A stretch of 32,000 nucleotides of DNA from Geobacter metallireducens GS-15. Lineage in GTDB: Bacteria > Desulfobacterota > Desulfuromonadia > Geobacterales > Geobacteraceae. Made by a program: the position numbers and the translations under genes. This document shows positions 6,132 to 26,759 of the stretch, in pieces. The notes beneath the pieces are model-generated. The model made no database searches. It saw only the letters and a program-made list of their open reading frames with translations, and was not told the DNA's origin. Each line of letters begins with the position of its first letter. The stretch's first letter is position 1. Location: the NCBI RefSeq assembly GCF_000012925.1, contig NC_007517.1:3480001-3512000 (forward strand), written 5' to 3'.

Positions 6132-8555
6132 CTACACCCTGAACCACCCCACCATGCCGTTCAACTCACCGGCCAGGCGGGAGAGATCCTCGGAGGAATG
6201 CTTGATGTCACTGAACGAACTGCGCAGTTCACGGGTAATGACGGAAATCTCATCCATGTTCCGGGAAACGTCACCGCTGGTTGACGACTGCTGCTCCGCC
6301 GCCACGGCGATGCGCCGCACCATGTCGGTGACCCGTTCCACATACTCCACGATCCGGTCCGTGGCCTCCATGGTATCGTTAATCCGGTCGAGGATCGTGC
6401 CCACCGACCGCCGCTCGTGATGCATGGAGCCCACCGACTGCTTCACGCTCTCCTGCATGGCTTTCACCGTCTGGGAAATGTCCGCGGTGGCGGTTGCCGT
6501 TCTCTCGGCCAGTTGCCGGACGCTGTCGGCGACCACGGCGAAGCCCCGCCCCTGCTCACCGGCACGGGCAGCCTCGATGGAGGCGTTGAGGGCCAGCAGG
6601 TTGGTCTGGTCCGCAATATCCTCGATCAGGGTGACGATCTCGTTGATCTGGGCCGACTGGTCCCCCAGGAGTTCCACCTTGCCGGCGGTATCCTCAAAGG
6701 TTCCGGCGAAGTGGCGCAACTCCCGGACGGTGAGCGACATGGCCTCCTTTCCCTCAAGCGCGGCCGTTTTCATCATCTCGGCGGTTCCGGCAGCCTCGGA
6801 GGTATTCCTGGCCACATCGAGGGTCGTCTGGGACATTTCCACCATGGCAGCCGCCGACTGCTCCACGCGTAGAGCCTGCTGTTCCGCTCCCTCCTCAAGG
6901 ACAGCGGCAGTGGTTGACATCTCTTCGGAATTACTGGCCAGAGACTCCGTGGCAGCGCCGATTCTGGCCACTATCTGGCGGATACTGTCCACCATCTTCG
7001 CCATTGACGCCTGAACCTTCCCCACCTCGTCGCGGCTGCCGCTTTCCAGGCGCGCGGCAAGGTTTCCTCCGGCCACCTCCTCGGAAGCGGCGATGAGCTG
7101 TCCCATCGGCAGGGCAATGGAGCGATAGATCCAGAAGCCAATCAGAATGCCGAACACGATGGCACCGATGCTGATGCCGACAATGAGGCCCATGCTGAAA
7201 CGGATCGTCGTATTGACCGATGCAATGGCCTTTTCCTGATCACCCTGGGCAGTTGTTACGGTCTCTTTTCCTTTCGCTGCCTGCTTCCGCACGATTTCCC
7301 GAAGCTTTGCCGCATCGTGCTCCGCCCGGGCCTTGAGTTGCATCTTCTGGTGGAGTTTTGCAAGGATCCCGTCCTTGGCCAGAATGGTCTCCCGGATGCT
7401 GGAGAGCGAGCCGAAGGCTGCATTGAGGAGCTTCAGCTCCTGGTTGGCCTTGACCTTCCGCAGCGAGACTTCCACCGCTCTCTCTGCCGCGGCTATCCTC
7501 CCGTACTGCTGGTTGATCTCGGCGGCGATACCGTCCAGTTCCTTTTCCGACCCGGCGAGGAACAGGCGGGAGGAGAGCCCTTCCACGGAGACACCGAGGG
7601 AGACCAGATCGGAGTTGCTCGACAGAACACCAACGGCGATATTCGAATTCGAGAAATTGCCCTTCAGCTTGGCGGCAACAGCCGTGCTCATCTGGTTCGC
7701 CTTGTCCGCCTCATCCTCGATCGTTTCGGAAATCGTTGCCAACGCCTCGCCCACGTGGCCGGCAAGGGCATCGACCCGCCTTTGATCGCTCCCCTCCACC
7801 TGGGCCTTGATGAGTTCTTCCATCCTGGCATTGATGGCAGCGACTTCGCTGCCGATCTGCTTGTTCTGCCGGACGTTACTGTTCTGCATAACCTTCTTCA
7901 TGGCAACGGCGTACTTTTCCTGAATCTGCTTCTTGTTCTGCACCCGCTGCAGGTCGACGACCAGGTACTGGACCTCTTTCAGGGATGCCTTGAGGGTTTC
8001 AATGCTCCTCAACCGCTGGGCAATCTTGTCGGTTTCGTCAGTGGCCGAGGCATAGGCGGCGGAACTGCTCTGCTGGAGGTTCTTGACTTTGCGGTCCAAC
8101 TCCTTGAGCCGCGCGGTTGTCTCCCTGGCCTGCCGGGAAATCATGGCGCTTGCCTCCGCCGATTCCCTTTCGGACGTAAGTTTCGCGGTCATGGTGCTGA
8201 ACAGCTCGGCGGCAATGCCGTTCAACTCATCAGACGCCTGGAGTTTCTCCCCGGAGAGGTTTTCCAGCACCTCCTGCGCCGCCCTGACATCCCTCAGCGA
8301 CTGTTCGGCCTCCGCCTTCGCCGCTGCGAACTCCTGGGTGGTTGCCGACGCCACCACCTTGATCAGATCGGCGGTGGCCCCCTGAAGCGACCGCTGGAAC
8401 TCGACGGTGCGCATCTGGAAGGGGGTGCTCTTTTCCGTGAGATACGAGAGTCGCCCCTTGATGGACCGCATGCCGATGAAGCTGGTGACGGCGACGGCAC
8501 CAACAACGATGATCATGATACAGGCGTTCGCCGTGAGTTTTGTCTTGATGGTCAT
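6132..8555 (-). CDS. methyl-accepting chemotaxis protein with a large helical periplasmic sensor domain
   Basis: 807 aa. TM1 lies at about residues 10-30, followed by an all-helical region of about 420 aa, then TM2 (GLIVGISIGAIVFGILIGFWIY). A HAMP domain follows, then the conserved signalling hairpin (LLALNASIEAARAGEQGRGFAVVADSVRQLAERT). Confidence 0.95.
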   Translation of the reverse strand: MTIKTKLTANACIMIIVVGAVAVTSFIGMRSIKGRLSYLTEKSTPFQMRTVEFQRSLQGATADLIKVVASATTQEFAAAKAEAEQSLRDVRAAQEVLENLSGEKLQASDELNGIAAELFSTMTAKLTSERESAEASAMISRQARETTARLKELDRKVKNLQQSSSAAYASATDETDKIAQRLRSIETLKASLKEVQYLVVDLQRVQNKKQIQEKYAVAMKKVMQNSNVRQNKQIGSEVAAINARMEELIKAQVEGSDQRRVDALAGHVGEALATISETIEDEADKANQMSTAVAAKLKGNFSNSNIAVGVLSSNSDLVSLGVSVEGLSSRLFLAGSEKELDGIAAEINQQYGRIAAAERAVEVSLRKVKANQELKLLNAAFGSLSSIRETILAKDGILAKLHQKMQLKARAEHDAAKLREIVRKQAAKGKETVTTAQGDQEKAIASVNTTIRFSMGLIVGISIGAIVFGILIGFWIYRSIALPMGQLIAASEEVAGGNLAARLESGSRDEVGKVQASMAKMVDSIRQIVARIGAATESLASNSEEMSTTAAVLEEGAEQQALRVEQSAAAMVEMSQTTLDVARNTSEAAGTAEMMKTAALEGKEAMSLTVRELRHFAGTFEDTAGKVELLGDQSAQINEIVTLIEDIADQTNLLALNASIEAARAGEQGRGFAVVADSVRQLAERTATATADISQTVKAMQESVKQSVGSMHHERRSVGTILDRINDTMEATDRIVEYVERVTDMVRRIAVAAEQQSSTSGDVSRNMDEISVITRELRSSFSDIKHSSEDLSRLAGELNGMVGWFRV

Positions 8556-8674: not shown

Positions 8675-8746
8675 GCGTGTTTAAAAATAATTTTGGCACA
8701 TTAATCATGCGCAATCAGCCAGATCAAGCAAGTGACTCCGTTGCAT

Positions 8747-10111
8747 CTACCACTCTTCCCGCTGTTTCTCCGCCATCTTCTGGAGATACAACTCCGGACT
8801 GGTCAGCCGCTTCACCTCATCGTCCGAATAGCCCAGCTCCTTGAACCGGAGCACCCCGTTGGGGGCATGGCAGTTGTTGCAGGTCAGGGCATTCTTTTTC
8901 GTCACCAGGTGATTGCTGCCGAACATGATGGTCTGCCAGCCGGGAACCGGGTCGTACTGCTTGATGCCGAGGATCTTTGCCGCCGAGGCCACGCCGGCCA
9001 GGGTGTCGCCGTTTGCCATGGGCGGGGCGAAGTCCATGGAAAGCAGTTTGCCGGTCTTGCGGTCGAAGAACCCTTTCCCCTGGAAGACTTTGAAGGGGTA
9101 AATCCTGCTGGCCTTGTCACTCCGGCTTCCCTTCGGGCCGATGAAGTCTGGCCGGTTGGCAACGGTCTTGTCGTACCACGCATAGACCGGCACCGTTTCG
9201 TTGGCATCCTTGCGGAGGGTGGTCGGCTCGTAGTAGCCGCTGGAGAGCTTCTCCCACTTGGTGAAATCCTTGGCGAAGGCGCCGCCGGTTCTGGTCACGT
9301 GGCAGGTCTGGCAGGCGATGCGGGCAGTATGCCGGTTGTACTCCGCATCCTTGTGGGGGGTTTCCGTGTGGCAGTCGGTGCAGGCAACCCGTACCCCATC
9401 GTGGGCCCAGTTGTTGGGATCAAAGCCAGTGGGGATCTTGTGGTTCTTTGCCTTGTGGCAGTCGACGCAGACCATCCCCTTGGCGGCGTGGACATCGTTC
9501 TCTTTCGTGAAGGCGAACCCGCGCTTCACCAGCACGCCGCCACCGGCCGCCTCGTGACATGTCATGCAGTTCTTGACCGTCGGCTTCGCGATGGCGAGCG
9601 CCGCCTTGACACTGCGGTCCTGCCCGAGCACGACCCGCCCCTGGTCATCCTTGAAGGGTTTGCGCTTGCTGTAGTCGTACTCGCGGGAATGGCAGAGCAG
9701 GCAGTCGATGGCCGCCTCGGCCTCGGGGCCGGTGCTCCCCACGTCGCTCACGTGGTTGCCGGGGTGGCAGGTGTTGCAGCCGGAGAACTTCGGCCCCTTG
9801 GCGTCGGGGATCTTGGGGATCTCCTTGAGGTTATTGACAATATCGTTGCCGTTGCACATGGTGTAGATGCGGTTTTTCATGCCGTATTCCCGGGTCGGAT
9901 CGGTATTCTCCACATTGTCCACCTTCGAGGCGTGGGTCCAGTGGACGGTGGAGAGGAACTCCTTTGCCTTGCCGGGGTGGCAGACCTCGCAGGTTTCCGG
10001 CCCCTTGTAGCCGTTCTTCTCCATATACTCCCTGCCGGGATGATCCTTGGCAAAGGCGGCGGATGCCATCACCGCCCCGGCAACGAGCCCGGTGAAAAGT
10101 ATCTTGATCAT
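8747..10111 (-). CDS. periplasmic octahaem c-type cytochrome
   Basis: 454 aa with a signal peptide (MIKILFTGLVAGAVMASAAFA). Eight CxxCH motifs are present: CEVCH, CNTCH, CLLCH, CMTCH, CVDCH, CTDCH, CQTCH, CNNCH. Confidence 0.9.
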   Translation of the reverse strand: MIKILFTGLVAGAVMASAAFAKDHPGREYMEKNGYKGPETCEVCHPGKAKEFLSTVHWTHASKVDNVENTDPTREYGMKNRIYTMCNGNDIVNNLKEIPKIPDAKGPKFSGCNTCHPGNHVSDVGSTGPEAEAAIDCLLCHSREYDYSKRKPFKDDQGRVVLGQDRSVKAALAIAKPTVKNCMTCHEAAGGGVLVKRGFAFTKENDVHAAKGMVCVDCHKAKNHKIPTGFDPNNWAHDGVRVACTDCHTETPHKDAEYNRHTARIACQTCHVTRTGGAFAKDFTKWEKLSSGYYEPTTLRKDANETVPVYAWYDKTVANRPDFIGPKGSRSDKASRIYPFKVFQGKGFFDRKTGKLLSMDFAPPMANGDTLAGVASAAKILGIKQYDPVPGWQTIMFGSNHLVTKKNALTCNNCHAPNGVLRFKELGYSDDEVKRLTSPELYLQKMAEKQREEW

Positions 10112-12845: not shown

Positions 12846-13886
12846 ATGGAGAGAAAGGCTATTGCATGTGCGGCCGTACTCGCCCTGGTTGTCGGAACGG
12901 CCTGGGGCAAGGATGATGTCATGGGACGGGCCAAGGGAATTTTCAAGCCGATTCCCGCCAAGGCCAAGGCATTGAAGGGGAACCCGGCCACGCCGGCAAA
13001 GGTAGAGCTGGGGAAGATGCTCTACTTCGACCCGCGGCTCTCGTCGTCGCAGCTCATCAGCTGCAATACCTGTCACAATGTGGGGCTGGCCGGCGCCGAC
13101 CTCCAGGAGACCGCCATCGGCCACGGCTGGCAGAAGGGTCCCCGAAACTCACCCACGGTCCTGAACGCCGTTTACAACATCGCCCAGTTCTGGGACGGCC
13201 GGGCCGAGGACCTGGCGGCCCAGGCCAAGGGGCCGGTCCAGGCGTCCGTTGAGATGAACAACAAACCCGAGAACCTGGTGGCGACCCTCAAGAGCATCCC
13301 CGGCTACCAACCCCTGTTCAGGAAGGCCTTCCCCGGCGAAAAAGACCCTGTCACCTTCGACAACGTGGCCAAGGCCATCGAGGTTTTCGAGGCGACCCTC
13401 GTCACCCCGGACGCCCCCTTCGACAGGTACCTGAACGGGAACAAGAAAGCCCTGACTGCCGCCGAAGAGCAGGGGCTCGCCCTCTTTCTCGACAAGGGAT
13501 GCGTCGCCTGCCACAGCGGCATCAACGTGGGGGGGACCGGCTACTTCCCCTTCGGCGTCAAGGAAAGCCCGGGCCCCGAAATCCGCCCCGAGGGGGACAC
13601 CGGCCGGTTCAAGGTGACCAACACGGCGGCTGACAAGTACGTCTTCCGGTCGCCGAGCCTGCGCAACGCGGCCATCACCATGCCCTACTTCCACTCGGGC
13701 AAGGTCTGGGCGCTGAAGGATGCCGTCAAGATCATGGGAGGCGCCCAGCTCGGCATCTCCCTCACCGACGACGACGCCGGCAAGATCACCGCGTTCCTGG
13801 GGAGCCTCACCGGCAAGCAACCGAAGGTCATGCACCCGATCCTGCCCCCCAACTCCGACACCACGCCACGCCCCATGACGAACTGA
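12846..13886 (+). CDS. dihaem cytochrome c peroxidase (CcpA/MacA family)
   Basis: 346 aa with a signal peptide and two haem motifs, CNTCH and CVACH. Conserved blocks include GHGWQKGPRNSPTVLNAVYNIAQFWDGRAEDLAAQAKGPVQASVEMNN. From memory it closely resembles Geobacter MacA; this was not verified. Confidence 0.95.
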   Translation: MERKAIACAAVLALVVGTAWGKDDVMGRAKGIFKPIPAKAKALKGNPATPAKVELGKMLYFDPRLSSSQLISCNTCHNVGLAGADLQETAIGHGWQKGPRNSPTVLNAVYNIAQFWDGRAEDLAAQAKGPVQASVEMNNKPENLVATLKSIPGYQPLFRKAFPGEKDPVTFDNVAKAIEVFEATLVTPDAPFDRYLNGNKKALTAAEEQGLALFLDKGCVACHSGINVGGTGYFPFGVKESPGPEIRPEGDTGRFKVTNTAADKYVFRSPSLRNAAITMPYFHSGKVWALKDAVKIMGGAQLGISLTDDDAGKITAFLGSLTGKQPKVMHPILPPNSDTTPRPMTN

Positions 13887-13896
13887 GCCCCAAAAA

Positions 13897-13928
13897 GGAA
13901 AGGCCGGAGAACTTCCTCCGGCCTTTCC
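13897..13928 (+). terminator. stem-loop terminator after the peroxidase gene
   Basis: GGAAAGGCCGGAG-aacttc-CTCCGGCCTTTCC forms a perfect 13-bp stem. It has an A-run on the 5' side and a T/C-rich 3' side. Confidence 0.55.
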
Positions 13929-13963
13929 CTCCGCCCATTGACTTTCCGCCGAAGTCATGCAAT

Positions 13964-14308
13964 ATGGGTCCCATGTCTCCCCAGAAAGAACAAAATGTTA
14001 TCGATATAATCCGCTCGTGCGTCAGTCGCAAGAGCATTTTCTGGACCTATCACGTCAGCATGCGCATGGCCGAGCGTTTTGTTCCCCGGCAAATTATCTT
14101 TGCATCCCTAGATACGTATGAAATAATCGAATCGTACCCCGACGACAAATACCTGCCCAGTTACCTGATCCGGGCTGAACACGAGGAGGTGGTCTTTCAT
14201 ATCCTCTTCGCTCTGGACCGGGACAACGATGCGGTCAGGATCATTACCACGTACACGCCGTCGTCCGAGAAATGGGAAGCTGACGGCAGGACCCGGAGGA
14301 AGTCATGA
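13964..14308 (+). CDS. DUF4258 domain protein (putative type II toxin)
   Basis: 114 aa. YHVSMRMAERFVPRQII...VVFHILFALDRDNDAVRIITTYTPSSEKW matches the DUF4258 pattern. It overlaps the next ORF by 4 nt (ATGA). An alternative start is the ATG at 13973. Confidence 0.85.
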   Translation: MGPMSPQKEQNVIDIIRSCVSRKSIFWTYHVSMRMAERFVPRQIIFASLDTYEIIESYPDDKYLPSYLIRAEHEEVVFHILFALDRDNDAVRIITTYTPSSEKWEADGRTRRKS

Positions 14309-14526
14309 AGTGTCACAATTGTGGCGGTTCTTTCGAGCAGATCACTACGGACCTTCCCTTCAAGACCGGCCCCCATTCCATCATCATCATCAAGGAGCTG
14401 CCGGTCCTGCAGTGCGGAAATTGCAGCGAATTTTTACTGGAAGATGCAGTCATGGAGAAGGTGGACGCGATTATCGCCGGCACCGGGAAGACCGTTGAAG
14501 TGGAAATTCTCCGTTACGCGGCATAA
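14305..14526 (+). CDS. YgiT-type zinc-finger protein (MqsA-N-terminal-like putative antitoxin, no HTH domain)
   Basis: 73 aa with a CxxC...CxxC pattern: MKCHNCGG...ELPVLQCGNCSEFLL. Confidence 0.85.
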   Translation: MKCHNCGGSFEQITTDLPFKTGPHSIIIIKELPVLQCGNCSEFLLEDAVMEKVDAIIAGTGKTVEVEILRYAA

Positions 14527-14556
14527 CGGCACAAAGCCCCCCTAACCGAGACGACG

Positions 14557-14594
14557 AAAGGCCGGAGCAAACATGCTCCGGCCTTTTCCTTTCT
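14557..14594 (+). terminator. rho-independent (probably bidirectional) terminator after the TA pair
   Basis: AAAGGCCGGAGC-aaacat-GCTCCGGCCTTT forms a 12-bp stem, followed by the TCCTTTCT tail. Confidence 0.7.
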
Positions 14595-14600
14595 CGCATA

Positions 14601-14740
14601 CCACTGAAGTGTCATCGCGTTCGTATGTGCGCCAGATTTGGCCGCGACGATTGAGCGCAACCGCAGGCGTAGCCAGAGCTACGTCGAGGATTGCGCGATT
14701 GAGGAGCGGTCGAAGATGGCGTGCAGACGGACGCGAGCCA
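14601..14740. repeat. unit A of a tandem ~140-nt imperfect palindrome (ERIC/MITE-like or structured RNA)
   Basis: The left arm (catcgcgttcgtatgtgcgcca...cgtagc) is an imperfect reverse complement of the right arm (gctacg...tggcgtgcagacggacgcgag). A near-copy follows directly. Confidence 0.75.
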
Positions 14741-14879
14741 CCACTGCCACCATCGCGTTCGCATGTGCGTCAGATTCGTCGTGGCTGATTGAACGGCACC
14801 GCAGGCGTAGCCCAGCTACGTCGAGGATGACGTGATTGAAGCCGCGGCGAAGATGGCGTGCAGACGGACGCGAGCCACC
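14741..14879. repeat. unit B of the tandem ~140-nt imperfect palindrome
   Basis: Same architecture as unit A. The outer and apex segments are near-identical, while the inner stem segments differ with paired changes. The unit ends directly at the flhB stop codon. Confidence 0.75.
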
Positions 14880-15941
14880 CTAGACCTTTCCTTTGAGGCT
14901 GTAGACGTAGGCTAGCACCTCCGCCACCGCCGCATAGAGCGCCTCGGGGATCTCCTCCCCCTCCTTCACCTGGGCGTAGAGTTCCCGGGCCAGGAAGCGG
15001 TTTTCCACGAGCATGACGTTGTTCTCCCGGGCCATGGCCTTGATGGTCTGGGCCATGTGATCGGCACCCTTGGCGAGGACCGTGGGGGCGGCCATGGTAA
15101 GGCGGTCGTACTTGAGGGCCACGGCGAAGTGAGTCGGGTTGGTGATGACCACGTCGGCGGTGGGGATGACGGCCCGCAGCCTCCGCTGGGCCTGCTGGAA
15201 CTGCATCTGGCGGATCTTCCCCTTGACCTTCGGGTCCCCCTCCGACTCCTTGTGCTCGTCCTTCACCTCCTGCTTGGTCATCTTCTGCCGCTCGATGAAG
15301 CGCCACTTCACGAAGACGAGGTCAACGATCCCCAGGATCAGGAGCACCCCGCAGGTGTGGATCACGAGCTTGAAGCAGAGATGCTTGAACAGTTCCAGAA
15401 TGCCGGACAGGTCGGTGTCGGTCAGGTAGATGATCCCGTCCAGCTCGTCACGCATGATCTTGTAGGACATGTAGCCGACGATCAGAATCTTGAGGGTCGC
15501 CTTGGCCATCTCCATGAAGGAGTCTTTGTTGAAGAGCTTGCCGAAATTTTCCGCCGGGTTCAGCTTTTCGGGCTTGAAGGCGATCCGTTCGGCGTTCATG
15601 GAAAAGCCCACCTGGGCCACGGTGGTAAAGAGGCCGACAATGACCACCACGAGCATGAAGGGCCCCACGACCTGCAACATGACAAGAAAAAGCTTCACCA
15701 GCAGCATCTCGACGCTCGACTCGGTGAGCTGGAAGGTACCCATGGAGCCGAAAATCTCGCTGGTGGTGGACTTGAGGGTGGTAAACATGAAGCCGCCGGT
15801 GGTGTAGAGGGCGACCATGGAGGCGATGAGCGTGACGGTGGAGGTGAGGTCGCGGCTGTGGGGGACCCCCTTCTTTTTCGCCTCATCCAGTCTCTTCGGG
15901 GTGGGTTGTTCTGTTTTTGAATGCTTGTCTTCTTCCGACAC
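14880..15941 (-). CDS. flhB: flagellar type III export protein FlhB
   Basis: 353 aa starting MSEEDKHSKTEQPTPKRLDEAKKKG, with the NPTH autocleavage motif (VVITNPTHFAVAL). The GTG start overlaps the fliR TAG by 1 nt. Confidence 0.95.
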   Translation of the reverse strand: MSEEDKHSKTEQPTPKRLDEAKKKGVPHSRDLTSTVTLIASMVALYTTGGFMFTTLKSTTSEIFGSMGTFQLTESSVEMLLVKLFLVMLQVVGPFMLVVVIVGLFTTVAQVGFSMNAERIAFKPEKLNPAENFGKLFNKDSFMEMAKATLKILIVGYMSYKIMRDELDGIIYLTDTDLSGILELFKHLCFKLVIHTCGVLLILGIVDLVFVKWRFIERQKMTKQEVKDEHKESEGDPKVKGKIRQMQFQQAQRRLRAVIPTADVVITNPTHFAVALKYDRLTMAAPTVLAKGADHMAQTIKAMARENNVMLVENRFLARELYAQVKEGEEIPEALYAAVAEVLAYVYSLKGKV

Positions 15942-16741: not shown

Positions 16742-16768
16742 GGGACCGGGGACCGGGGACCGGGGACC
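16742..16768 (+). repeat. (G)GGGACC heptad array x4 in the fliQ-fliR spacer
   Basis: The + strand reads gggacc ggggacc ggggacc ggggacc. The array lies 6 nt from the fliR ATG. Confidence 0.85.
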
Positions 16769-17098: not shown

Positions 17099-17164
17099 GG
17101 GATCGGGGACCGGGGATCGGGGACCGGGAAAGGCTTTAATGCTTTTTCCGGTCCCTGGTCCCGG
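17099..17164 (+). repeat. GGGGAYC heptad array (5 G-tracts) plus inverted partner copies in the fliP-fliQ spacer
   Basis: The + strand reads ggg atc gggg acc gggg atc gggg acc ggg (17099-17128). After a 19-nt A/T-rich loop comes ccggtccctggtcccgg (17148-17164). GGGACCGG and CCGGTCCC form a perfect 8-bp stem. Confidence 0.8.
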
Positions 17165-24556: not shown

Positions 24557-25996
24557 CTATAGTCTTACGTCGAGGATCGAGTCGCGCCGGTCGGTGTAGT
24601 AGTAGTCGGCTGCCTGGGTCGCCGGTGCCTCGGTCTCTGCCGTTCCCCGCTGGTACGCGGTCCGGAAGCCCCCTTGTTGGCCGGCCTCCTTCCCCTGGTG
24701 GAAGAGCTGCTCGTACCCCTGGCCCGTGCCGGTGGATACGTCGAAACCGGTCATGGTCAGGTTCTGCCGCGAGAAGTTCTCCTTGAGGGAATCCAGGTTG
24801 CTGAGAAGAATCTCCCGCACCTGGCTGTTGGCCGCCAGCACTTCCACCTTCACGTGCTGATCCACCACCTGGACGTTGATCCGGAGTTCCCCCAGTTCCG
24901 CCGGGGCAAGCCGGATCGCGATCTCGCCGTTGCCGGCCGGCTGCCGGGTTGCGATCCCCTCCTTCACCTGGGCCATGATGCTGTCGCGCAAGCCGTGGTT
25001 CGGCTGGTGCTCTGACTTCGTGGTGCCAGTGAGGGTCGGCTCGAAGGGTTTCGCCGCGTCGGTCTGGACGGGTGCGACGTGGGCCTTCAGGTCAGCGGAG
25101 TTGCTCCCGCCTTTTCCCTGCTCGCCGGTGGACTGCTCCTTGCCGCCTTCATCCCCGATGGTCACCTCCACCTTCTGGAGCTTTGCATCAGTGAGTGGTG
25201 CGGTTTCCGTCCCCGAAGCCTGTTTGGTCTCGGCCGAGGGATTCCCCTCCTTCGGGATGACCGGTATCCGGTCGGGATAGGCTGCCGCCGGTCCCATGGT
25301 GCGGGGTGCCGGTTTGCTGGCTGCCGCCTCCGGTGCCGGTGCCGTTTCGGGCAAGGGCTCGGACGCCTGTGTCCGGAGTTCTACCTCGGTGGTTTTGGTG
25401 GGTTCGAGGTTGACCTTAAGGACCTCCACCGCATTCTTTTCCTCGGCCTTGGGTGCCGGGGTGGCCTGGGGCGCCGGTGCGGCGGGGGCTGCTTCCGTTA
25501 TCGGAGTTTTCGCCTGCGTCGTCTCCCGGGGAAGTTCGGGTTGATGGATGACGGCGTCGGCAAGGGGGGGTTGGGACGGAAGCGCGGCAGGTGCCGTGGC
25601 GGTTGCAGCGGCCATGACCTGCGTCGCCGCAACGGCGGCGCTCGCCTCGATGGTCGTGCCGGTCGGGACAGGGGTTTCGGTGACCGGAGCGGCCTGCGGA
25701 ACGATCGTCCGGGGTGCCACAAGGGATGCGAGCGACATCATGGCTGCTTCGGCGGTGGTGATATCGTCCGGTTTTGCGGCGGTGGCGTTTTGATCGTCCG
25801 GCTCTGCGGTTTCCGCGGGAAGGGATGGCAGTTCCGCGGTCGCCGTCGTGGCGGGGGGCTCAACGAGAAGCCCGGCCATGAGCGAGGCGAAGAGGTCGGG
25901 GGTGGCGGCAGACCCGGCAGGGACTTCAGGTGCGGTTCCGGCGGTGGGGACGGCTTGAGGAATCACCTGGAGCATCTGCATGATCTCCATGCTCAT
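24557..25996 (-). CDS. fliK: flagellar hook-length control protein FliK
   Basis: 479 aa with an Ala/Pro/Thr-rich low-complexity centre and a C-terminal Flg_hook-type domain (IAIRLAPAELGELRINVQVVDQHVKVEVLAANSQVREILLSNLDSLKENF). Confidence 0.85.
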   Translation of the reverse strand: MSMEIMQMLQVIPQAVPTAGTAPEVPAGSAATPDLFASLMAGLLVEPPATTATAELPSLPAETAEPDDQNATAAKPDDITTAEAAMMSLASLVAPRTIVPQAAPVTETPVPTGTTIEASAAVAATQVMAAATATAPAALPSQPPLADAVIHQPELPRETTQAKTPITEAAPAAPAPQATPAPKAEEKNAVEVLKVNLEPTKTTEVELRTQASEPLPETAPAPEAAASKPAPRTMGPAAAYPDRIPVIPKEGNPSAETKQASGTETAPLTDAKLQKVEVTIGDEGGKEQSTGEQGKGGSNSADLKAHVAPVQTDAAKPFEPTLTGTTKSEHQPNHGLRDSIMAQVKEGIATRQPAGNGEIAIRLAPAELGELRINVQVVDQHVKVEVLAANSQVREILLSNLDSLKENFSRQNLTMTGFDVSTGTGQGYEQLFHQGKEAGQQGGFRTAYQRGTAETEAPATQAADYYYTDRRDSILDVRL

Positions 25997-26210
25997 ACTT
26001 TTTCACCTCCTTTCTTTGTGGTATGAAACGCGGCTTTTCCGCGTTTTGCACTGCTATTCAGTTGTCAGAGAACAGAAAAGACATCTTCCAGGAACGTCAA
26101 TTTTTCGCAAGATCAAGGCTGTCGAGGAATTGCGCGGAGGCGTACCTGTTGGTACGCCGCACAAGCGATACCGAAGACTTACGCAGATATTGCGGAAAAG
26201 TGGCGTTCCA

Positions 26211-26759
26211 TCATCTCGCCGCCAGGTTCTGCCGGGTCCACTTGAGCGCCCGCTCCTTCTTGATGAGGGGGAGGAGCTTGGTGGCCCGCTTCTGGTCCAT
26301 CTCGCTCAGGAGCTCCAGGGCCTCGTTCTCGGAGAGGCCGTCCAGGAGCTTCACCGCTTCCTGGGGCTTCAACCCTTTGTAGACCTTGAGGAGCTTCTGG
26401 TAGTTGGCGCTCTGCACCTTCTTACGGGCGTCCAGGGAACGGTCCAGCCCCGCCTTGGCAGCCTCCAGCTCCTTCACCCGCGCTTCAAGGGTAGCTGCCA
26501 GGGCTTTCAGCTCCTGCTCCTTAACGGCGAGGGCCGCCTCCTTGGCGGCGAGCTGCTGCTTTTTCAGCTCCAGGGACGCGGCTTCGCTGACGCCATTTTT
26601 GGTGCCCGCCGTCGGATAGACGGGCGCGGCCACGGCGGGACGCGTGCTGCCCCCTCCGGAGGGCTGGGCCTCGACGGAGGGAGGAGAACAAATCGGCGGC
26701 GCGAGGAGAAGGAAGAACCCCGCCACCGCCACAATCGGTATGAAAGCCTTTTTCCGCAT
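26211..26759 (-). CDS. MotE/MgtE_N-domain flagellar-associated protein
   Basis: 182 aa with an N-terminal signal/TM segment and a coiled coil. The C-terminal block YQKLLKVYKGLKPQEAVKLLDGLSENEALELLSEMDQKRATKLL is MgtE_N-like. Confidence 0.7.
   Translation of the reverse strand: MRKKAFIPIVAVAGFFLLLAPPICSPPSVEAQPSGGGSTRPAVAAPVYPTAGTKNGVSEAASLELKKQQLAAKEAALAVKEQELKALAATLEARVKELEAAKAGLDRSLDARKKVQSANYQKLLKVYKGLKPQEAVKLLDGLSENEALELLSEMDQKRATKLLPLIKKERALKWTRQNLAAR

Follow-up and report, generated by a model that had tools for sequence, protein, structure and literature searches.

The 32,000-nucleotide stretch of Geobacter metallireducens GS-15 analysed here (the window; NC_007517.1, positions 3,480,001 to 3,512,000) carries two tandem palindromic units, A and B, next to the stop codon of the flagellar gene flhB. 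The closest described system is a repeat family of the same genome, of which Aklujkar et al. (2009) listed 24 copies, Gmet_R1001-R1024, as 'predicted short RNAs, group 1' (PMC2700814, Additional files 4 and 5). The entry consists of a BLAST alignment, given on the complement of the strand that folds well, with no structure, strand, mobility or function listed; the family feature is a central palindrome, GRCGTAGC-GCT-GCTACGCC, inside an intergenic imperfect palindrome of ~110-115 nt (PMC2700814). We propose, with moderate confidence, that units A and B are immobilised cores of a rod-like hairpin repeat related to miniature inverted-repeat transposable elements (MITEs), that is, tandem copies of the Gmet_R1001-R1024 family without transposon ends.

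Two of the published copies fall within the window, both at an offset of exactly 3,480,000. Gmet_R1021 (3494616-3494731), annotated as lying 3' of Gmet_3093 and 3' of Gmet_3094 (flhB), is window 14616-14731, within unit A, and Gmet_R1022 (3506092-3506204), annotated 5' of fliK, is window 26092-26204 (PMC2700814). The published strings show no substitutions against the window, only letters dropped in the machine-read PDF. The element is therefore already known, and it is not a flagellum-specific RNA. We found no later mention of the Gmet_R10xx tags or of the family in the searchable literature, and literal searches of papers for the apex strings returned unrelated primers only. Rfam 15 gave no match over the units at E <= 10 and none in the whole window at gathering thresholds; a search in E-value mode over seven loci with other subtypes gave no match either.

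Several other repeat families resemble the units. The MITE-like ERIC/IRU and Correia (NEMIS/CREE) elements are similar in size (~100-160 bp), are imperfect palindromes with many intergenic, often intra-operon copies and form long RNA hairpins when transcribed (Delihas 2011; PMC3184786). The present family is unrelated to them in sequence and belongs to another host phylum, and its apex, not its ends, is most conserved. It also differs in the constraint on the pairing of one strand, in ~11-nt periodic tandem G.A mismatches, and in window copies that lack both terminal inverted repeats (TIRs) and target-site duplications. With MITEs of the IS5 or PIF-Harbinger type (3-bp TNA/TWA duplication), long relatives of the units share G(G/A)G TIRs and TAA/TTA/TCA duplications, although no cognate transposase was found in the examined loci and the window units consist of the core only. 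REP, BIME and REPIN sequences are likewise intergenic hairpins at gene 3' ends, with tandem or inverted clusters, a GTAG/CTAC motif and long orthologous persistence. Roles in mRNA 3'-end protection have been proposed for them, and they are mobilised by RAYT transposases. REPs measure 20-40 nt and REPINs ~100 nt, and their conserved 25-mers sit at the base of the hairpin. In the present units the base is the variable part and GTAG is located in the apical stem; this position, together with the size (a single 122-nt hairpin), rules out a REPIN.

The Chunjie MITE of Geobacter uraniireducens comes from the same bacterial family and is a very stable hairpin that inserts into operons. In the summary of Chen et al. 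(2008) given in PMC3184786, Chunjie is A+T-rich and 178-235 bp long, with 21-bp TIRs and 9-bp direct repeats; set against that summary, the present family is G+C-rich and has 3-bp duplications or none. The MRSC-type candidates of Narunsky et al. (2024; PMC11109978), such as MRSC-65-2, also have a single long covarying stem, dozens of copies per genome and inconsistent gene orientation, and for them, too, it is a question whether RNA or DNA is the acting form. The UYCCGG repeat that defines MRSC-65-2 does not occur in the present family, which is not named in PMC11109978 or its supplement.

Structure of the tandem units

Three members of the family were detected in the window with our covariance model, R1:

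14613-14750, + strand: unit A, hairpin 14615-14736, linker ACCACTGCCAC (Tandem Repeats Finder; fold; R1, 141 bits; Gmet_R1021)
14751-14879, + strand: unit B, hairpin 14753-14873 (Tandem Repeats Finder; fold; R1, 130 bits; no entry at its coordinates in the published list of 24)
26086-26209, + strand: third member, of another subfamily (Gmet_R1022; R1, 24.7 bits, E 3e-4; published string)

Units A and B form the only array reported for the window by Tandem Repeats Finder (14613-14879, period 137, 1.9 copies, 84% matches). This bears out the original prediction, made from the letters of the window, of two head-to-tail palindromic units; as it also stated, the array occupies the gap from the terminator hairpin at 14557-14586 to the flhB stop codon at 14880-14882. 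Each unit was expected to form a hairpin of about 130 nt, and each does form one long hairpin, of about 122 nt. The 29-nt block said to be shared by A and B, GAAGATGGCGTGCAGACGGACGCGAGCCA, occurs exactly twice in the 32 kb (at 14712 and 14849), with none expected from shuffles. Only short, mutually overlapping open reading frames (ORFs) cross the units in all frames, consistent with the predicted absence of a credible ORF. One small ORF in the 3' arm (ATGGCGTGCAGACGG...) was considered and rejected, as it is not conserved in single-unit genomes and would there run antisense into flhB.

The + strand fold has an energy of -79.0 kcal/mol for unit A, against -50.2 +/- 3.7 for shuffled controls (z -7.8; 0/200 as good), and of -72.9 kcal/mol for unit B (z -6.2; 0/200 as good), a comparison that the original prediction had called for. 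Folds of the complement remain at about -45 to -51 kcal/mol, with values of -51.4 kcal/mol (z -2.4) for unit A and -47.7 kcal/mol (z +0.7) for unit B. The asymmetry between the strands is the same with DNA energy parameters. When A and B are compared on the family consensus structure, 10 of the 41 pairs differ; seven are changed on both sides and still paired, where at least six had been counted by eye, and two are changed on one side and still paired. On the same structure unit A has six G-U pairs and unit B seven, as predicted for the + strand, and neither has an A.C cell. The minimum-free-energy folds of the - strand contain only one or two G-U pairs, slightly fewer than the two or three first reported.

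Both units have the central palindrome of the published family. Their apex is GGCGTAGC-(3-4 nt)-GCTACGTC, in which one G-U replaces a G-C of the published form, and the hairpin base is CATCGCGTTCG...CGGACGCGAG, in which the 5' arm has GTT and the partner arm lacks AAC. The 3' base of unit B lies 6 nt from the flhB stop codon, and the sequence downstream of the units, CCACCCTAGACCTTTCC, is already flhB coding sequence. The flanks are unrelated (...GAAGTGT before CATCGCG at one end, GCGAGCC before ACCCTAG at the other) and show no target-site duplication. A terminator scan detected no intrinsic terminator (G+C-rich hairpin with U-tract) at the units and no U-tract 3' of the hairpin, a promoter scan found no sigma-70-like promoter adjoining them, and inspection of the conserved spacer CTCGCATACCAC by eye for sigma-28 and sigma-54 motifs found nothing convincing.

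The third member, matched by R1 over 26087-26213, has the compensated apex variant GCGTACC..GGTACGC. It lies between fliK (24557-25996, - strand) and a flagellar gene at 26211-26759 (- strand), and its well-folding strand is antisense to both. The RNA fold of that strand is -58.2 kcal/mol (z -6.9) against -43.7 on the other strand, and 1 nt separates the 3' base of the hairpin from the TGA that ends the upstream gene (26211-26759).

A dispersed family with covarying arms

Further copies were gathered from metagenome contigs by the exact apex pattern CAGGCGTAGC-N2-5-GCTACGTCGAG, so the apex of that set is necessarily invariant. The scan returned at least 120 stretches, nearly all of them hairpins of 120-210 nt whose arms are wholly different between copies and still complementary. 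Viral contigs gave only three apex matches. The covariance model also recovered copies without the exact pattern: contig L071 (11.4 kb) has four, L075 has a tandem array of three, and other loci contain pairs. When species-representative genomes were searched with a 19-mer from the 3' arm, real copies were identified in only four Geobacter-type genomes, all at the orthologous flhB site. The G. metallireducens copies of the published list are predominantly intra-operon, for example between nifH and nifD, between ETF subunits and between dapB and dapL. The family is multi-copy, intergenic and widespread. An all-against-all BLASTP of flanking ORFs from ~125 loci revealed no recurrent neighbour protein, only spurious ORFs through the hairpin, and none of 72,556 plasmids matched one long relative in a BLAST search.

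To assess covariation we used 33 copies of the Geobacter-like subtype, aligned with MAFFT by sequence only and not fitted to the structure. The alignment contains 41 consensus pairs, 23 of them with two-sided changes. In all, 95.2% of cells are paired, against 84.5% in column shuffles (0/500 as high), and the value falls to 34-43% once partners are slid by one to three columns. The 24 published copies keep the apical stem through the compensated variants GCGTACC/GGTACGC and ACGTGGC/GCCACGC and thereby provide support for this stem that is independent of the pattern used to gather the metagenome set. The conserved apex is GCGUAGC-loop-GCUACG, flanked by purine-rich internal loops. The stem below is built of ~11-nt modules, in which 5'-YRGAUUUGG is paired with 5'-CMAAGAYGG and each has a tandem G.A; it further contains a symmetric GAUUGA/GAUUGA internal loop, and a GCA/GA loop lies beneath the apex.

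Transposon-like ends of the longer relatives

Similarity among the four L071 copies and one copy in L116 begins sharply at TAA followed by GGGAGTCAGAATAAAC and stops at GTTCTGACTCCC followed by TAA; outside, the sequences are unrelated. In L071 (1-11427) these copies lie at 30-157, 6918-7045, 7669-7796 and 8735-8862, in both orientations and each bounded by TAA, and they show the clearest ends of any long relative. Among nine types of end the outer three bases are nearly always TAA, and TTA on the left goes with TTA on the right. In a census of 100 distinct elements, 22 had identical trinucleotides outside a complementary end pair, among them TAA in nine, TTA in two and TCA in three; the TAA, TTA and TCA cases all lie about 78 nt from the apex, and a shifted control had no such preference. 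The inverted repeats of the long relatives begin G(G/A)G. The IS5-family element IS1237 has the inverted repeat GAGGTGG... and duplicates TTA(TAA) (PMC2516522). The G(G/A)G TIRs and 3-bp TNA duplications (mostly TAA) of the long relatives are the signature of MITEs that move by cut and paste with IS5-family transposases. Other MITE features of the family are many copies, no coding capacity and differences in presence and absence (0, half, 1 or 2 units among ten genomes compared at the flhB site).

Of the readings offered at the outset, that of an ERIC- or MITE-like structured repeat agrees with this dispersed family, with its 24 listed copies (PMC2700814), its three members in the window and its longer relatives with TIRs and TNA duplications. 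The original prediction had added that arms matching the ends of a known insertion sequence would make the repeat an ordinary MITE: the relatives' ends are indeed of IS5 type, but no cognate insertion sequence was found in the examined loci.

A second group of relatives ends in GTGTCC...GGRCAC (L101 3195-3345, L050 and L042). It has TA on the 3' side, often as C followed by TA, which gives the TAG of a convergent gene, and its 5' bases are variable. A TA duplication that has decayed, or another rule of insertion, could account for this; the same core would then be carried on two kinds of ends.

Pairing constraint on one strand

Of 110 copies, 109 fold more stably on the strand bearing CAGGCGUAGC than on the complement (mean -74.7 versus -56.4 kcal/mol), and the same preference holds in 22 of the 24 published copies. 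Across 103 elements, G-U pairs outnumber single A.C mismatches by 444 to 22 in the core and by 197 to 16 in the outer arms, a ratio of ~20:1; tandem GA/GA occurs 125 times, and purine-purine mismatches far exceed pyrimidine-pyrimidine ones. Mutation acting equally on both strands would yield G-U and A.C in equal numbers, so the excess of G-U indicates that pairing of the well-folding strand is selected, as RNA or as single-stranded DNA. Deamination of an exposed sense strand would probably bias the counts the opposite way. The pairing of one strand, the + strand at flhB, is under continuing constraint, with G-U tolerated and A.C not. The constrained form would be the + strand hairpin, more likely as RNA than as DNA given that G-U is tolerated as freely as Watson-Crick pairs.

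These results do not favour the suggestion that the array is a 3' untranslated region (UTR) stabiliser of the flhB operon. The constrained + strand is antisense to flhB, the flhB-sense fold of unit B is no better than shuffles, and other copies stand in unrelated gene contexts; a weaker hairpin in the flhB 3' UTR is possible.

Orientation and stop-codon adjacency

Relative to neighbouring genes, the well-folding strand is antisense in 100 cases and sense in 61 (p 0.003, with two neighbours per element that are not independent). Between co-directional genes there are 24 antisense and 12 sense cases (p 0.065). For convergent genes, the stop codon is no more than 10 nt away from the hairpin's 3' base in 29 of 42 cases (median -1), compared with only 9 of 27 for the stop codon of a co-directional upstream gene at the 5' base, and start codons are seldom adjacent (4/29 and 4/21). 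Both window loci follow this rule, at the distances given above for unit B and Gmet_R1022. In G+C-rich DNA, a TNA or TA target is expected to bring insertions onto stop codons. The bias in orientation suggests selection against strong hairpins within mRNAs. The 24 published copies show no significant replichore bias (15/24 concordant).

Orthologous units at the flhB site

We compared the flhB site in ten genomes, taken from loci around FlhB homologues and from the 19-mer scan. Units after flhB, and the neighbouring cargo, are as follows; FlhB identities are to the window:

G. metallireducens (window): units A and B; DUF4258/YgiT toxin-antitoxin (TA) cassette
SKS4.bin16 (L018): two units; no cargo
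L005: two near-identical A-type units flanking the cassette; same DUF4258/YgiT TA cassette
G. grbiciae (FlhB 96%): one A-type unit; same DUF4258/YgiT TA cassette
L015: one A-type unit; locus starts inside flhB
G. hydrogenophilus: one B-type unit; no cargo
L155 (FlhB 87%): one unit; no cargo
Geotalea uraniireducens (FlhB 76%): one unit, 105 bits; LysR gene
Desulfuromonadales metagenome-assembled genome, L156 (FlhB 80%): 5' half of a unit only; HEPN/MNT pair
G. daltonii (FlhB 65%): no unit; synteny broken

One or two units follow flhB in eight genomes, out to G. uraniireducens, with constant orientation and with the 3' base 0-8 nt from the flhB stop codon. In all five comparisons the units are more similar than fourfold-degenerate sites of flhB (0.96/0.92, 0.88/0.74, 0.95/0.70, 0.88/0.71 and 0.77/0.50). 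Compensatory change is seen at 9 of 43 pairs across 11 orthologous units, in which only three cells are A.C. The higher identity and the compensatory pairs together argue that the copies at flhB are not decaying neutrally; an alternative explanation of their conservation, in place of direct selection, is gene conversion from other family members. Single copies of A type and of B type occur in different lineages, which points to an ancestral tandem pair that was probably reduced by unequal recombination. In L156 (5057-5140, - strand) the unit is reduced to its 5' arm and half of the apex, and the flhB stop codon comes directly after, in place of the missing 3' arm.

Origin and possible function of the units

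Given the analyses above, we propose that a copy entered the genome of an ancestor of Geobacter and Geotalea at the TAG that ends flhB. This copy may have lost, or never had, the outer arms bound by transposase, and a tandem duplication would then have given rise to types A and B, of which later lineages presumably retained one or both. The active form would be a single-stranded hairpin, most likely an RNA transcribed from the ccpA/TA side, and the orientation of the family may be biased so that the strong hairpin stays outside host mRNAs. Any local effect could be incidental or protective, the units acting as a block or sink for read-through past the upstream terminator before it runs antisense into flhB. 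Such a barrier or sink for ccpA/TA read-through is the most plausible local effect, albeit unproven, as neither a U-tract nor a promoter was found at the units; a dedicated flagellar regulator is unlikely.

Several observations weigh against this proposal. No transposase or autonomous insertion sequence with the TIRs of the relatives was detected in the examined loci, where every TIR match was a hairpin element. The window units, like several metagenome copies, are core-only, without outer arms; they have no TIR separate from the hairpin and no target duplication, so that their descent is argued from homology of the core. Conversely, MITEs may have captured a pre-existing hairpin module. Selfish mobility by itself does not explain the G-U and G.A asymmetry or the purifying selection at flhB, since a cut-and-paste transposon needs no strand-specific folding. 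The element is dispensable, since the unit lacks its 3' arm in L156 and is missing altogether from G. daltonii. The selected RNA may be rare, given that no + strand promoter was found and that a strong terminator stands just upstream. Finally, the orientation counts depend on neighbour genes called by a simple home-made classifier of amino-acid composition, for which the annotated genes of L154-L158 served as training set and the window as a check.

A broader version of the proposal, which we regard as a tentative possibility, is that the ~120-nt core rod is a functional single-stranded module, namely a widespread class of structured RNA missing from Rfam that rides on at least one kind of MITE, is long retained at orthologous sites under purifying selection and has its strong strand antisense after stop codons. 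The rod has an apex kept invariant by pairing, tandem G.A mismatches at ~11-nt intervals on one helical face and the ~20:1 excess of G-U over A.C, and it could serve as a portable insulator against antisense transcription or as a scaffold for an RNA-binding protein. A rival explanation that we consider rather unlikely is a co-opted cis element after stop codons, either a barrier to convergent transcription (strong strand) or a REP-like protector of mRNA 3' ends (weaker complement), which at flhB would insulate the gene from the ccpA/TA unit or stabilise the fliPQR-flhB mRNA. The adjacency to convergent stop codons across the family, at flhB in eight genomes and at Gmet_R1022 speaks for such an element, as do the conservation of the unit above the synonymous rate, the intra-operon position of most G. 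metallireducens copies, as with REP/BIME, and the remaining stability of the complement. However, the hairpin is not followed by a U-tract and the terminator scan was negative at the units, the strand under selection differs from the mRNA strand, the TNA/TA target preference in G+C-rich genomes also predicts stop-codon adjacency, and the unit is halved in L156 and absent from G. daltonii.

The 2009 annotation as 'predicted regulatory short RNA' would make the units two paralogous ~130-nt genes for trans-acting small RNAs (sRNAs) on the + strand. We consider this improbable. Strand-specific structure with covariation, an orientation independent of any one fixed neighbour, and a conserved apex with purine-rich internal loops that might bind a protein are what such genes could show, but no sigma-70-like promoter was found, a strong terminator lies only 26 nt upstream, and no terminator follows the units. 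Moreover, dozens of divergent, operon-internal copies per genome and relatives with TIRs and target-site duplications are at odds with it, and no Rfam family matches. The original suggestion of an undescribed structured sRNA is weakened on the same grounds of promoter and terminator, and with the 2009 listing of unit A as a predicted short RNA the element is not undescribed. Least probable of all would be a single-stranded DNA hairpin extruded for recombination, an attC-like entry site for small cassettes such as TA modules. Folds with DNA parameters do give the same strand asymmetry, and G.T and tandem G.A mismatches are tolerated in DNA also; the TA cassette of L005 is flanked by two near-identical units, and three different cargoes (DUF4258/YgiT, HEPN/MNT and LysR) occur at the locus. 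Yet the attC core sites RYYYAAC/GTTRRRY are absent from the hairpin base and the pattern of conservation is reversed (apex conserved, base variable), which together rule out an integron attC. In addition, the TA cassette of the window is flanked by two terminator hairpins and not by units, the well-folding strand is mostly the template for transcription and the leading-strand template and is thus least often single-stranded, and no integrase was found among the called neighbour genes in the window and the compared flhB loci.

The units represent one locus of a genome-wide family; they have little meaning for the flagellar cluster and lend themselves to no reading as a regulator specific to flhB. 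The family itself is abundant in environmental bacteria, absent from Rfam and constrained on one strand, with transposon-type ends in its relatives, and the remaining interest lies in the cause of such strong strand-specific structural selection in a transposon-associated hairpin. Should the constraint reflect an RNA function, Geobacter and related bacteria would have, in thousands of stop-codon hairpins, a layer of transcript control that has gone unrecognised. Should it instead reflect a need of transposition, it would imply a DNA transposon with a strand-specific structural requirement that standard cut-and-paste models do not predict.

Neighbouring genes and other repeats

The surroundings of the units in the window comprise the following features:

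12846-13886, + strand: di-haem cytochrome c peroxidase gene (Pfam CCP_MauG), by synteny a conserved gene in relatives, flanking the units opposite flhB
13897-13928, no strand assigned: terminator hairpin after the peroxidase gene (sequence; Rfam ar35 match, terminator part)
13964-14526, + strand: TA cassette, DUF4258 protein (13964-14308) and YgiT-type zinc-finger antitoxin (14305-14526) (Pfam; NCBIfam; locus comparison)
14557-14586, no strand assigned: terminator hairpin of the TA operon, possibly bidirectional, a perfect G+C-rich 13-bp inverted repeat (100% complementary) with T-runs
14880-15941, - strand: flhB (Pfam Bac_export_2, E 2e-121), stop codon 14880-14882, convergent with the well-folding strand of the units

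The hairpin at 14557-14586 lies on the same strand as unit A, 26 nt upstream of it, and matches Rfam sRNA models in its terminator part only. It and the hairpin at 13897-13928 are near-duplicates flanking the TA cassette. By locus comparison, the cassette is absent in G. hydrogenophilus and L155 and stands elsewhere at the locus in L005. Its left edge, ATTGACTTTCCGCC, follows the terminator hairpin in G. metallireducens and G. grbiciae and the hairpin unit in L005; in each of these three genomes the hairpin that flanks the cassette is duplicated. The gap between the peroxidase gene and the units is a hot spot for small cargo (window 13937-14600; L005 1050-1735; L154 5190-5900; L156 5130-6100; L157 5200-6350), holding the HEPN/MNT pair in L156 and the LysR gene in G. 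uraniireducens, and no cargo in G. hydrogenophilus and L155.

The window also contains four tandem heptamers (GGGACCG) at 16742-16768 and 17099-17128, in the fliR-fliQ and fliQ-fliP gaps. They match a separate, 49-member family, the 'four heptanucleotide repeat (GGACCGG)' of Additional file 6 (PMC2700814).

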